Part shown: positions 5,011 through 62,839 of the stretch, in pieces
How the letters are laid out: each line of letters starts with the position of its first letter
Position numbering within the stretch: the first letter of the stretch is position 1
From: Haliea sp.
GTDB lineage: Bacteria; Pseudomonadota; Gammaproteobacteria; Pseudomonadales; Halieaceae
Assembly: GCF_040222615.1 (NCBI RefSeq)
Contig: NZ_JAVKCQ010000019.1
Location: 21,979 to 85,978, forward strand
Direction: 5' to 3'
DNA length: 64,000 bases
The notes under the pieces: generated by a model
What the model saw: only the letters and a program-made list of their open reading frames with translations
Told to the model about the DNA's origin: nothing
The model's database searches: none
Translations under genes and position numbers: made by a program

Positions 5011-5716
5011 TATCTGGATCCTTTTGCGGTAGGTGACGGGTTGCAGAATCGGCCGGCGCGGCGGCTTGCAGTGCGTGGGCCAGCAGCATCTGTTGCAGTT
5101 CGGCGCGGAAGGTGGCGCTGCCCAGCCATTCCGGCTGTTCGTCCACTGCCCGGGCGCTGGCCTCGGTCAGGGTGGTGGCGATCAGGAAGGCGCGGAAGGT
5201 GGCGCTTGCCGTTGGCAATTCGGGCCGGTGGTGCAGCAGAGTTTCCCGCAGCCATTCCTGCAGTGAACTGGTCGGGGCGTAGCGGCGGACGCTGGCCTGG
5301 ATCAGGGTGTCAAAGCCGATTTCCCGATGATAGCGCCGGTAGATTTCGCCGTGACGCTGCAGCAGGCGCCGGTGCCGTTCGCAGGTGACCACCACCAGCT
5401 CCCGCAGGGTGTCCTCCAGCGACTGCCAGCGCAAGGCGCCGAGGTAGCGGGTTTCGCTGGCGAGCTGGTCGGCCTCCTCTGGCGCATCCTCCAAAAGGAC
5501 ATCGAGGAGTACCGCCTCCTTGTTGGGGTAGTATTGATAGAAGGAGCCAATGGTGACGCCCGCCACATCGGCAATCCGCTGCGCGGTGAGGGAGTCGGCG
5601 CTGTTGTCCTGGATGATGCGCCGACAGGCCTCCCGAATGGACGCCACAAGCAGTCGCGAGCGAGCCTGTTTGGGCTCGCGGCGGGTTGCCTGCAACCTGT
5701 TGTCGGCGTATGTCAT
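4994..5716 (-). CDS. TetR/AcrR-family transcriptional regulator
   Basis: R.PKQARSR N-terminus and HTH TAQRIADVAGVTIGSFYQYYPNKEAV. Confidence 0.9.
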   Translation of the reverse strand: MTYADNRLQATRREPKQARSRLLVASIREACRRIIQDNSADSLTAQRIADVAGVTIGSFYQYYPNKEAVLLDVLLEDAPEEADQLASETRYLGALRWQSLEDTLRELVVVTCERHRRLLQRHGEIYRRYHREIGFDTLIQASVRRYAPTSSLQEWLRETLLHHRPELPTASATFRAFLIATTLTEASARAVDEQPEWLGSATFRAELQQMLLAHALQAAAPADSATRHLPQKDPDNELPE

Positions 5717-59922: not shown

Positions 59923-59978
59923 CTGTCACTAATCTGCAATTTCCCCGTCATCCCATTGTCATTGACACGGCCTAGTAT
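59923..59978 (+). promoter_or_regulatory. Pho box array (four PhoB half-sites) plus -10 element
   Basis: CTGTCAC(59923), CTGCAAT(59934), CCGTCAT(59945), TTGTCAT(59956) at exact 11-bp periodicity; TAGTAT 10 bp after the last repeat. Confidence 0.75.
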
Positions 59979-60000
59979 CGCGCCGGTCAAAAACAATCGT

Positions 60001-62198
60001 CACGGCGTCAGCACGGCGTCGCCGGAGAACCGCCGCGGCATCATGCTCGATGGCGTTGCTTCCGACATGCTGGACTCCATGACAGTCTACAAGACGCTCA
60101 CCCCGAACCTCGACGCAGATACGATCGGCGGCGCTATTGATCTGGAGACCATCAGTGCTTTCAAACACGACGGCTTCCACGCCAAGGTGAAGGCAGAGAC
60201 CTCCTGGAACGAACTGACCGGGGACAGCAACAACCCCAAGCTTGCAGTGGTCGCCAGCAACCGCTTCCAGCTGGCGGATGGTGAGCTGGGCGTGGCGCTG
60301 ACCCTGAGCGACCAGAGTCGCCGCATCGTGTCGGAAACAATGAAACCGGTGGCTGGTCGGATGTCGCCATCAACGAAGACTACGAAATGCGGTACTACGA
60401 TCTGGAGCGCGAGCGCCAGGGTGTAGTTCTCAATTTCGATTATCACGCCGCGAGCGGCAACAAGTACTACGCCCGCTTTTTCCACAACGAATACACCGAC
60501 ACCGAGGACCGCACCAAATGGGAAGTTCGCCGTGCCTTCGAGGATGAGCCGGTGATCGACGGCGACATCGCGACCTATCCCTTCCAACGTGTGGATACTG
60601 AATCCCGCCCCCGGATAGAAACCCGCACCATCAGTTCGGTCCAGCTGGGGAGCGAATTCCAGCTCACCGAGCGCAGCACCCTCAAGGCCGAGATTTTTGG
60701 TTCTGAAGCGGAGCAGGACGATACCGACAAGTGGAACGTGATTTTCCGCAGTGCCCAGCTCGACGTTCCGATGACCTACGACAACAGCAACCCGAAGAAA
60801 CCGGTGATCAACTTCGCCCAGGAACTCTACGACCCGGCCAATTTCGAGTTGAGCGCCTTCGAGGCGGAAAACGCCCTGACCACGGACCGGGATGTCGGCT
60901 TCAAGCTGGACCTGAGCTATACCCTGAATGAGCGCACCGAGCTGCAGTACGGCATCAAGTATCGCCAGCGGGAGAAGGACAACGACTTCAATTTCTGCGG
61001 CTATGAGCCAGTGGCTGATTCCACCCTGGCGGATTATCCGAACCAGGAGATCGGCGACTACTTTGGCAACCGGCACGGGCCGGCGCCGACGGTCGCCGGC
61101 ACTCGCGGCCTGATTTCCACTCTGGGTGACGGCGTGTTCATGCTCTCCGATGGCACAACCTGTCGCGCCCCGGGGAGTGCCTGGGAGATGAGTGGCGACG
61201 AGGATGAGGAATCCATCGCCGCGGACTGGTATACCGATGAGGACATTCTGGCCGGCTACCTGATGGCCACCACCGCGACCGATACGGTGACCTGGATCTA
61301 CGGCCTGCGCTATGAGGACACCAGGGCTACTTATGCGGGCAAGCAGTTTGACGGTGACGCCTTTGCCGGCCCGGTAGCGTTTGACAACGACTACGGATTC
61401 CTCGCGCCTTCACTGAATGTCCGGGTCGACCTGAATGATGAACAGGTGCTGCGGCTGGGTGCGTTCCGCTCCCTGGTGCGGCCCGGATTTGGTGAATCTG
61501 CCGCCGGTGCGGAAATCGACCTGGAGGACAACGAGATCGACGGTGGCAACCCCTTCCTGGATCCCACGGTTGCCTTGAATTTTGACGTCAGCTTCGAATG
61601 GTATCGGGGTGACGAGACCTTCATCGGAGCGGGCCTGTTCTACAAGGACATCAAGGATGCGATTGTGGAGGTGGACGCAGCAGATACTGCCCTCCGCGGT
61701 CGGGTCTGGGACCGGGCTGAAACCTTCATCAATGCTGGCGACAGCAGCATCTGGGGTGCCGAGTTCTCCTACCAAACGGCGCTGGACAACGGCTTTCTGC
61801 TGGTGCTGAACTACACCTACGCCGATGGCGAGACCGACCTGCCGGCGGATTCCGCCTACGGTGAGCGCAGCATCCCGTACTTCAAGCAGGCGAGGCACAC
61901 AGCCAACGTTTCTGTGGGCTACGACAGGGGGCCATGGGATGTCCGCCTGGCGGCCAACTATCGCGACAAATACCTCGATGCGATCGGTGGCCAGGCGCTG
62001 AATGATCGCTATACCGGCGACTTCGTGCAGGTGGACTTGACCGGAAAATACGCTATCAACGACAAGTTGACCCTGAATGCGTCCGCAATCAATCTCAACG
62101 ACCGCCCGGAGTTCTACTACTTCGGCAACGAGCGCCGCCTGTCGCAGTACGACGAGTTCGGCACCACCTATGAGCTTGGCCTGACCTATATTTTCTGA
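60001..62198 (+). pseudogene. TonB-dependent receptor, 5'-truncated and frameshifted
   Basis: Plug segment GVST..PE.RRGIMLDGV.SDML....VYKTLTP..DAD.IGGAI.L has no upstream signal peptide or RBS. A frameshift at TCGGAAACAATG (60331-60342) joins to the barrel ORF 60387-62198, which ends TYELGLTYIF. Confidence 0.8.
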
Positions 62199-62206
62199 GG
62201 AAGATC

Positions 62207-62839
62207 ATGCACAAGTACCTTGCTGTATTGCTACTCGCCTGCGCCCTGCCGGCGCTGGCAGATGCCCCGGTGGCGGGGGTCAGGCTGGTGGAGAACGTGT
62301 TGTACTTCCCCCAGCCGGAGAGTGCCCCCGCCGAGGTTTATGCCCTGGTGGAAATTCCCGCAGGCAGTGGTATCAAATACGAACTGGACGCGGCGACCGG
62401 CCACCTGCTGGTGGATCGCTTTCAGTCCATGCCGGTGGTGTACCCCGCGAACTACGGTACCCTGCCGTCGACCCTTGCGGGAGACAATGATCCGCTCGAT
62501 GTTCTGGTGTTTACCCGTGAGCCGGTGGCACCCGCTGCCCTGATCCGGGTACGGCCGATAGGAGTGCTGCGAATGCTCGATGGCGGCGAACAGGATGACA
62601 AGCTCCTCGCCGTGCCGGCGGATGCAGTGGATCCCACATACGCGGGGATAAGGGATATTGGTGACCTGCCAGAGATTGAATTGCAGCGTCTGCAGGCATT
62701 TTTTTCCGTTTACAAGCAGCTGCCTGCAGGCCGCAAGCAGGTTGAGTTGCAGGGCCTGGGCGACCGTGGTGTTGCACTGGAGGTCACCCGGGCCGCGCTG
62801 CGGCGGTTTGCGGCCGCAGCCGGTGCCGGAGCAGACTGA
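62207..62839 (+). CDS. ppa: Family I inorganic pyrophosphatase with a signal peptide
   Basis: MHKYLAVLLLACALPALA|D signal; EIP...IKYE, VDR, YPANYG, GDNDPLDVLV, D.GE.DDK, FF..YK catalytic residues intact. Confidence 0.88.
   Translation: MHKYLAVLLLACALPALADAPVAGVRLVENVLYFPQPESAPAEVYALVEIPAGSGIKYELDAATGHLLVDRFQSMPVVYPANYGTLPSTLAGDNDPLDVLVFTREPVAPAALIRVRPIGVLRMLDGGEQDDKLLAVPADAVDPTYAGIRDIGDLPEIELQRLQAFFSVYKQLPAGRKQVELQGLGDRGVALEVTRAALRRFAAAAGAGAD

Follow-up and report, generated by a model that had tools for sequence, protein, structure and literature searches.

Phosphorus scavenging in Escherichia coli and Pseudomonas runs, within the Pho regulon, through the porins PhoE or OprO/OprP, the alkaline phosphatase PhoA and uptake by PstSCAB. 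A second arrangement, in which a Pho-regulated TonB-dependent receptor (TBDR) is paired with a phytase or phosphatase, is also known: pairs of a TBDR and a beta-propeller phytase were reportedly described from aquatic and soil Proteobacteria by Lim et al. and by Blanvillain et al., both in 2007, and phosphatase loci of Bacteroidetes that are inducible by low inorganic phosphate are said to have been treated by Lidbury et al. in 2021. Family I inorganic pyrophosphatases (PPases) are otherwise known as cytoplasmic enzymes. A TonB-dependent transporter for phytate has been predicted from gene context (Tang et al. 2012, PMC3400609). Here we analyse a locus in a 64,000-nucleotide stretch of contig NZ_JAVKCQ010000019.1 of Haliea sp. 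(hereafter the window), where a Pho-box promoter precedes the remnant of a TBDR gene and an intact gene for a predicted exported family I PPase. A first reading of the bare sequence (the original prediction) had taken the locus for a working receptor and PPase that together scavenge pyrophosphate (PPi) or polyphosphate. We consider it likely that the ancestral locus was a two-gene, PhoB-activated phosphorus-scavenging unit, of which the receptor has been destroyed here and the promoter and PPase gene are intact.

We take the locus to be genuine. It represents a hitherto undescribed form of a known combination, in which a Pho-regulated receptor is paired with an exported phosphohydrolase; in this strain it is partly decayed, and its substrate is inferred. 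With the TBDR–phytase pairs it has in common the receptor lineage (TIGR01782, 39–62% identity) and the layout, a receptor beside one exported phosphohydrolase, but the partner is a family I PPase, no phytase was found in the genome, and the receptor is to all appearances a pseudogene. The same logic of receptor plus exported phosphohydrolase is shared with pairs of a TBDR and a purple acid phosphatase, from which the locus differs in enzyme class and presumed substrate. As in the Pho scavenging of E. coli and Pseudomonas, a CTGTCAT-type box stands in for the -35 element, 10 nt upstream of the -10, Pho boxes also stand before pstS and a porin gene, and condensed or esterified phosphate would, as proposed here, be hydrolysed outside the cytoplasm and taken up by Pst; entry, however, would be by an energised TonB-dependent receptor rather than a porin, and the hydrolase would be a dedicated PPase.

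The Pho-box promoter and the predicted exported pyrophosphatase

Four PhoB-type half-sites at 11-bp spacing and a -10 element were found where the original prediction had put them. The half-sites (CTGTCAC, 59923-29; CTGCAAT, 59934-40; CCGTCAT, 59945-51; TTGTCAT, 59956-62) are direct repeats spaced by exactly 11 bp, and 23 of their 28 positions are identical to the CTGTCAT consensus. When both strands of the 4.09-Mb genome (~8.2 million positions) were scanned for sets of four CTGTCAT half-sites at 11-bp intervals, this array reached the joint top score; only five positions scored at least 21, and 19 scored at least 19. No -35 hexamer or sigma-70 -35/-10 pair was found by a simple sigma-70 scan of the array region, which fits the expectation for a PhoB-dependent promoter, and in the pstS promoter of the same genome the last half-site and the -10-like hexamer are likewise 10 nt apart. 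The genome's other high-scoring arrays of two or four half-sites precede genes for a PstS-type phosphate-binding protein, a Porin_5 porin, a PAP2 phosphatase and a gspC-like component of type II secretion. A PhoB orthologue (332 bits, against an NCBIfam cut-off of 296) is encoded on the contig that carries pstS. Because the motif precedes the core Pho gene pstS and PhoB is present, the Pho-box observation can be taken as real.

The orthologous TBDR genes of relatives have equivalent arrays at -82 to -124 from their start codons, which score 17–23/28 in Halieaceae and Cellvibrionaceae and 14/28 in Porticoccaceae and are followed by a -10 of TAGTAT, TAATAT or TAAGAT; the position of the array is the same for all orthologous TBDRs of Halieaceae and Cellvibrio. 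The joint top score and this conservation in orthologous promoters led us to reject the idea that the Pho box arose by chance. With a top-scoring array, its recurrence before orthologous TBDRs and a PhoB orthologue in the genome, Pho control of the locus is well supported by sequence, in agreement with the original proposal, and phosphorus starvation would be the expected inducer.

The second gene of the pair is intact. Its open reading frame (ORF) begins 8 bp past the TBDR stop codon, and its product matches PF00719 (E = 1.1e-48, profile positions 2–151 of 153) as well as solved PPases in the PDB (E = 2e-41). Aligned (alignment A1) with what we take to be the sequence and residue numbering of E. 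coli Ppa, it keeps 14 of 14 catalytic and metal-binding residues (E20 K29 E31 R43 Y51 Y55 D65 D67 D70 D97 D102 K104 Y141 K142 in E. coli; E49 K57 E59 R71 Y79 Y83 D93 D95 D98 D125 D130 K132 Y169 K170 here), which confirms the full catalytic set first read from the translation. That this might be the only ppa of the genome, which would have counted against the original prediction, was rejected: a second, canonical copy of 181 aa lies on contig C171. The two paralogues are 39% identical, and the NCBIfam equivalog model NF002317 gives the canonical enzyme 277.6 bits. The exported PPase has the PF00719 domain and the 14 catalytic residues in common with canonical E. coli Ppa, yet it is only 39–41% identical to canonical cytoplasmic PPases and falls below the equivalog cut-off (165.9 versus 200 bits). 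It also adds an N-terminal extension of ~26 residues that includes an 18-residue signal peptide, has a cysteine-free mature domain, and carries A and V in place of H136 and H140.

Several features of this extension point to export. The N-terminus (MHKYLAVLLLACALPALA, followed by DA after the predicted cleavage site) shows n-, h- and c-regions, which by inspection are MHK, YLAVLLLACALP and ALA before the D, with A-L-A at -3 to -1; the AxA signal peptide that had been proposed is therefore present. Among the 120 best database homologues, 117 have an N-terminal extension of ~26 residues, and in these full-length homologues a strongly hydrophobic stretch (10 residues, mean Kyte-Doolittle at least 2.0) occurs in 113 and a K or R within residues 2–8 in 111. 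The mature domain lacks cysteine in 108 of 112 homologues, compared with 2–3 cysteines in each of two cytoplasmic enzymes. Since these signal-peptide features are conserved across homologues, export of the PPase is well supported, as judged from the sequences, and its location would be periplasmic. Attachment as a lipoprotein through Cys12 of the signal peptide was considered and rejected, this residue being too near the N-terminus and absent from relatives. Between the Pho promoter and ppa, a simple sigma-70 scan of the window detected neither promoter nor terminator, so there is no sign in the window of an independent ppa promoter.

Two further observations concern the surroundings of Pho boxes in this genome. 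Outside the window, near position 5415 (+) of contig C162, an array scoring 22/28 lies ~70 nt upstream of a gspC-like gene (PF11356), and this locus may encode a phosphate-controlled secretion system; Hxc of Pseudomonas aeruginosa, which is such a system, offers a parallel. Divergent from the array in the window is a gene for a signal-peptide-bearing GSDH-family dehydrogenase (pyrroloquinoline-quinone-type glucose/sorbosone, PF07995; 58642-59826, minus strand), which starts 97–136 bp from the Pho array; among Halieaceae relatives it is found at the same place in several and in truncated form in others (L006–L008).

The receptor remnant and its relatives

Of the arrangement first read here, a TBDR gene followed 8 bp later by a PPase gene, the spacing and a receptor remnant stand, and the intact receptor gene does not. 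Compared with the closest relative, a Haliea metagenome-assembled genome (MAG; locus L013, 87% nucleotide identity), 381 bp are missing: 42 nt at the end of the leader, ribosome site included, and codons 1–113, which comprise the start codon, signal peptide, TonB-box region and initial part of the plug. A single-nucleotide deletion, defined against locus L003 as well, then shifts the reading frame (Table 1). The ORF list holds two overlapping frames, 59956-60426 and 60387-62198, and the match to a TBDR barrel is in the second only, as an open ORF of 603 aa (PF00593, 2e-38); no Pfam match to a Plug domain occurs in the receptor frames of the window. A tblastn search of the window with the intact L013 TBDR returns 92–93% identity spread over two frames, and the same method finds no close second receptor copy in the genome, where the next best match has 25% identity. 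On this comparison of sequences the receptor is a recent pseudogene in this genome.

Over 727 codons the remnant contains no additional stop, and its ratio of nonsynonymous to synonymous substitution rates (dN/dS) against relatives, 0.054–0.068, is like that of the intact orthologues among themselves (0.056–0.076); inactivation was therefore very recent or, less likely, the lesions are an artefact. With the receptor dead, this strain would have no import by it, contrary to what was first proposed for this organism, and at most the periplasmic PPase arm of the system would survive. By synonymous divergence (dS) the remnant is nearest to L003 (0.44, versus 0.69 to L013) and the PPase gene is nearest to L013 (0.40, versus 0.98 to L003), and this difference in nearest relative suggests that a recombination breakpoint lies within the pair.

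Table 1. Positions of the promoter elements, genes and lesions of the locus within the window
Feature	Position	Strand	Details and basis
Pho-box array	59923..59962	+	four CTGTCAT-like half-sites in 11-bp phase; sequence and genome-wide scoring
-10-like hexamer TAGTAT	59973..59978	+	10 nt 3' of the last half-site; sequence
TonB-dependent receptor pseudogene	60001..62198	+	plug end and whole barrel, equal to codons 114-845 of the 845-aa orthologue
Junction of the 381-bp deletion	60002..60006	+	5-bp overlap of the aligned segments; alignments with L003, L005, L006, L008 and L013
1-nt deletion, frameshift	60335..60337	+	A4 to A3 against L003; GAG to GA against L013
PPase ribosome-binding site GAGGAAG	62197..62203	+	overlaps the TBDR stop codon (62196-98); sequence
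Family I inorganic pyrophosphatase, intact, predicted to be exported	62207..62839	+	210 aa; PF00719; catalytic residues; dN/dS 0.11-0.13
PPase signal peptide, 18 residues	62207..62260	+	predicted cleavage between ALA and DA; sequence

Intact TBDR–ppa pairs, which had been expected in relatives, do occur in Halieaceae, Cellvibrionaceae and Porticoccaceae. At loci of Haliea, Cellvibrio and Porticoccaceae an intact TBDR gene (844–849 aa) lies directly 5' of the exported PPase gene, and the pair is present at every locus of the three families that has an exported PPase and enough flanking sequence. The module is accessory: the exported PPase occurs in 3 of 121 sampled Halieaceae genomes and in 2 of 7 from the genus of the window. 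In one of these three, a Halieaceae genome of another genus (G049, C1:1175204-1175713), an exported-type PPase matches from residue 37 only, in a 178-aa frame with no orthologous TBDR beside it, and to judge from its sequence the module seems to have decayed at this locus as well; a Kineobactrum salinum database entry of 133 aa (P0051) resembles the shortened PPase of G049.

The junction between the two genes differs among relatives. A hairpin and U-run lie there at L003 (7920-8000), L006 (7890-8000) and L011 (4909-5000), in some cases with tandem GC-rich repeats (GGGGCGCCTAGCC-like) on their 5' side. The hairpins of L006 and L011 have GC-rich stems of 8–9 bp followed by U7, and the ribosome site of the PPase comes right after the hairpin in L003, L005 and L006 and ~45 nt later in L011. 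Repeats and hairpin have all been lost in the window and in L013, leaving a junction of 8–11 bp.

The wider receptor lineage is associated with more than one enzyme. The intact orthologue is a TBDR of the TIGR01782 ('Xanth-Caul') family (528.8 bits, cut-off 310). Relatives with 39–62% identity to the L013 receptor, at eight loci (L098–L105), all have an adjacent beta-propeller phytase; a 67% identical receptor in a Steroidobacteraceae MAG (L108, 106-4099) has a purple acid phosphatase 17 bp downstream; and at two loci with 63–72% identity (L097, L109) neither enzyme is adjacent. One receptor lineage is thus seen with three exported phosphohydrolase partners: phytase, purple acid phosphatase and PPase. 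By maximum likelihood, the PPase-linked receptors from Halieaceae and Cellvibrionaceae group together with support of 96/99; their clade is nested in a group whose deeper branches are phytase-linked, and the PPase pairing may have had a single origin. No beta-propeller phytase was found in the window's genome, which is 99.6% complete. Because its relatives adjoin phytases or a purple acid phosphatase, and this genome is without a phytase, the receptor lineage looks, from gene context, like an importer of phosphorus compounds whose partner hydrolase has been swapped.

Distribution of the predicted exported pyrophosphatase clade

Exported PPases of this type extend well beyond the receptor pair. 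Scanning one genome per species for the clade's signature peptides yielded relatives in 415 species; among the 80 best loci listed, most belong to Enterobacterales, including Klebsiella (with K. pneumoniae), Citrobacter, Kosakonia, Pantoea, Erwinia, Kluyvera, Raoultella, Enterobacter and Pectobacterium, and a few to Alphaproteobacteria. Members in Xanthomonadaceae came from a protein-database search; in Pseudoxanthomonas the exported PPase gene comes after two genes, one for a protein with weak likeness to phytase and one for a purple acid phosphatase, beside another TBDR. The Enterobacterales genes stand alone. A Pho-box-like pair of half-sites scoring at least 12/14 was found within 250 bp upstream at 38 of 70 loci, compared with 22 of 3000 control windows (0.7%) taken from the same loci, and in Enterobacterales most of these sites fall 65–95 nt 5' of the start codon. 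None of 5,426 complete E. coli genomes contains a member of the clade, and this may explain why it has escaped study. The exported clade has A and V throughout at the positions of E. coli H136 and H140 (alignment A1); these two histidines presumably belong to the hexamer interface, and the oligomeric state may differ from that of the cytoplasmic hexamer.

Expression data on a possible member exist for one enterobacterium. A microarray study of Citrobacter rodentium, done with a pstCA mutant whose Pho regulon is constitutive, reported the strongest induction (11.5-fold) for ppa, a gene that it flagged with a putative Pho box and described as cytoplasmic (PMC3511308). Our homologue search returned the names Citrobacter freundii and K. 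pneumoniae and no C. rodentium entry. Neither full-text literature searches nor a 2024 review of microbial PPases (PMC11210485) turned up a bacterial family I PPase described as periplasmic, secreted or exported, and in the open literature searched we found neither a TBDR for PPi or polyphosphate nor a PPase paired with this TBDR lineage. An exported, Pho-box-associated clade of family I PPases, and its pairing with a TBDR, are thus undescribed in the literature searched.

Proposed function, alternatives and significance

We propose that, in strains with the intact pair, phosphorus starvation would cause PhoB~P to bind the four-half-site array, which replaces the -35 element, and transcription would start ~7 nt after TAGTAT. 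The TIGR01782-type receptor would then import a poly-anionic phosphorus compound into the periplasm; given the partner enzyme, its ligand is most plausibly metal-complexed PPi or short polyphosphate, and phytate-like ligands are possible. There the Sec-exported, Mg-dependent family I PPase would hydrolyse PPi, and PstSCAB would take up the two orthophosphates released. In the strain studied here the PPase, if still made, would act only on PPi that enters through porins.

A number of points weigh against this scheme. PPi is small enough for porins, which makes a TonB-dependent importer less obviously necessary. Nor is PPi the sole ligand candidate: to judge from gene neighbourhoods, the nearest relatives of the receptor pair with phytase or purple acid phosphatase, and such partners would suit a general importer, with no sign of specificity for PPi. 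Most relatives have an intrinsic-terminator-like hairpin between the TBDR and PPase genes, so that the PPase there would be made by read-through and co-transcription would be partial. In the window itself, ppa lies behind a pseudogene of ~2.2 kb without its own translation start; because the native start is lost and the remaining in-frame ATGs have, by inspection, no convincing ribosome site 5' of them, Rho-dependent polarity over these 2.2 kb may reduce or abolish expression of the PPase. Finally, the induced ppa of C. rodentium may be a different gene from the exported paralogue, the report of its induction giving neither locus tag nor primers (PMC3511308).

Some of the same observations would suit a different ligand. 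The receptor lineage might still import phytate or another organic polyphosphate ester, as has been suggested for its phytase-linked members, with the exported PPase as an accessory that clears PPi or acts on some other phosphoanhydride or vicinal-phosphate substrate and does not define an uptake route for PPi. This would agree with the phytase neighbours of all the more distant (39–62% identical) receptors, among which the PPase-linked group is nested, with the purple acid phosphatase that follows the 67%-identical orthologue, and with the gene order in Pseudoxanthomonas. We nevertheless regard it as rather improbable: the nearly complete genome yielded no beta-propeller phytase, the PPase is the sole adjacent hydrolase at every PPase-linked locus, and its active site is fully canonical in a family whose members are highly specific for PPi in the presence of Mg2+. 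It is very improbable that the exported PPase serves envelope housekeeping (removal of periplasmic PPi, or control of Mg/Ca-PPi chelation) with Pho-box-like repeats that do not drive it. The intergenic terminators of relatives, which partly uncouple the PPase from the TBDR promoter, would be in keeping with such a role, but in dozens of Enterobacterales genera the stand-alone genes have Pho-box-like repeats directly 5' of them, the gene lies within phosphatase clusters in Xanthomonadaceae, and its distribution in Halieaceae is patchy and accessory.

The decay of the receptor gene could itself be questioned, if its two lesions had arisen as errors of assembly or sequencing, or belonged to a minority variant, while the organism itself had an intact operon. 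The frameshift is the contraction of a run of A from four to three, a typical type of error, the genome is a draft of 241 contigs, and neither the dN/dS of the remnant nor its lack of further stops betrays relaxed selection. A clean internal deletion of 381 bp with 5 bp of shared sequence would, however, be an unusual product of an assembler, two independent lesions fall in one gene, and the module has decayed elsewhere too, at the G049 locus with its 5'-shortened PPase and no adjacent orthologous TBDR. An artefact is therefore quite unlikely, in our estimation.

Our preferred reading remains that of an ancestral PhoB-activated scavenging unit which has lost its receptor in this genome. A broader claim would be that the exported PPases, a distinct clade, are the dedicated periplasmic pyrophosphatases of the Pho regulon, that in Halieaceae, Cellvibrionaceae and Porticoccaceae they have replaced phytase as partner of the TBDR, and that the pair is the first TonB-dependent uptake route for PPi or polyphosphate; this we put forward only tentatively, as a possibility that we think may well prove wrong. 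If true, a periplasmic PPase within the Pho regulon would account for the finding that ppa was induced more than any other gene in the C. rodentium pst mutant.

For this genome, the analysis mainly corrects an annotation, the receptor being by sequence comparison a recent pseudogene. PPi and polyphosphate are real components of the dissolved phosphorus of seawater and soils, and their extracytoplasmic use by Gram-negative bacteria has been credited mostly to unspecific alkaline phosphatases and porins. If the proposed function is true, a Pho-controlled exported PPase would add a specific step to this use, as would its coupling to an energised receptor in three marine and soil families, and a gene of many Enterobacterales would gain a testable function. 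With phytase, purple acid phosphatase and PPase as its partners, this TBDR lineage would also make a natural system in which to ask how phosphorus-importing TBDRs choose their ligands.

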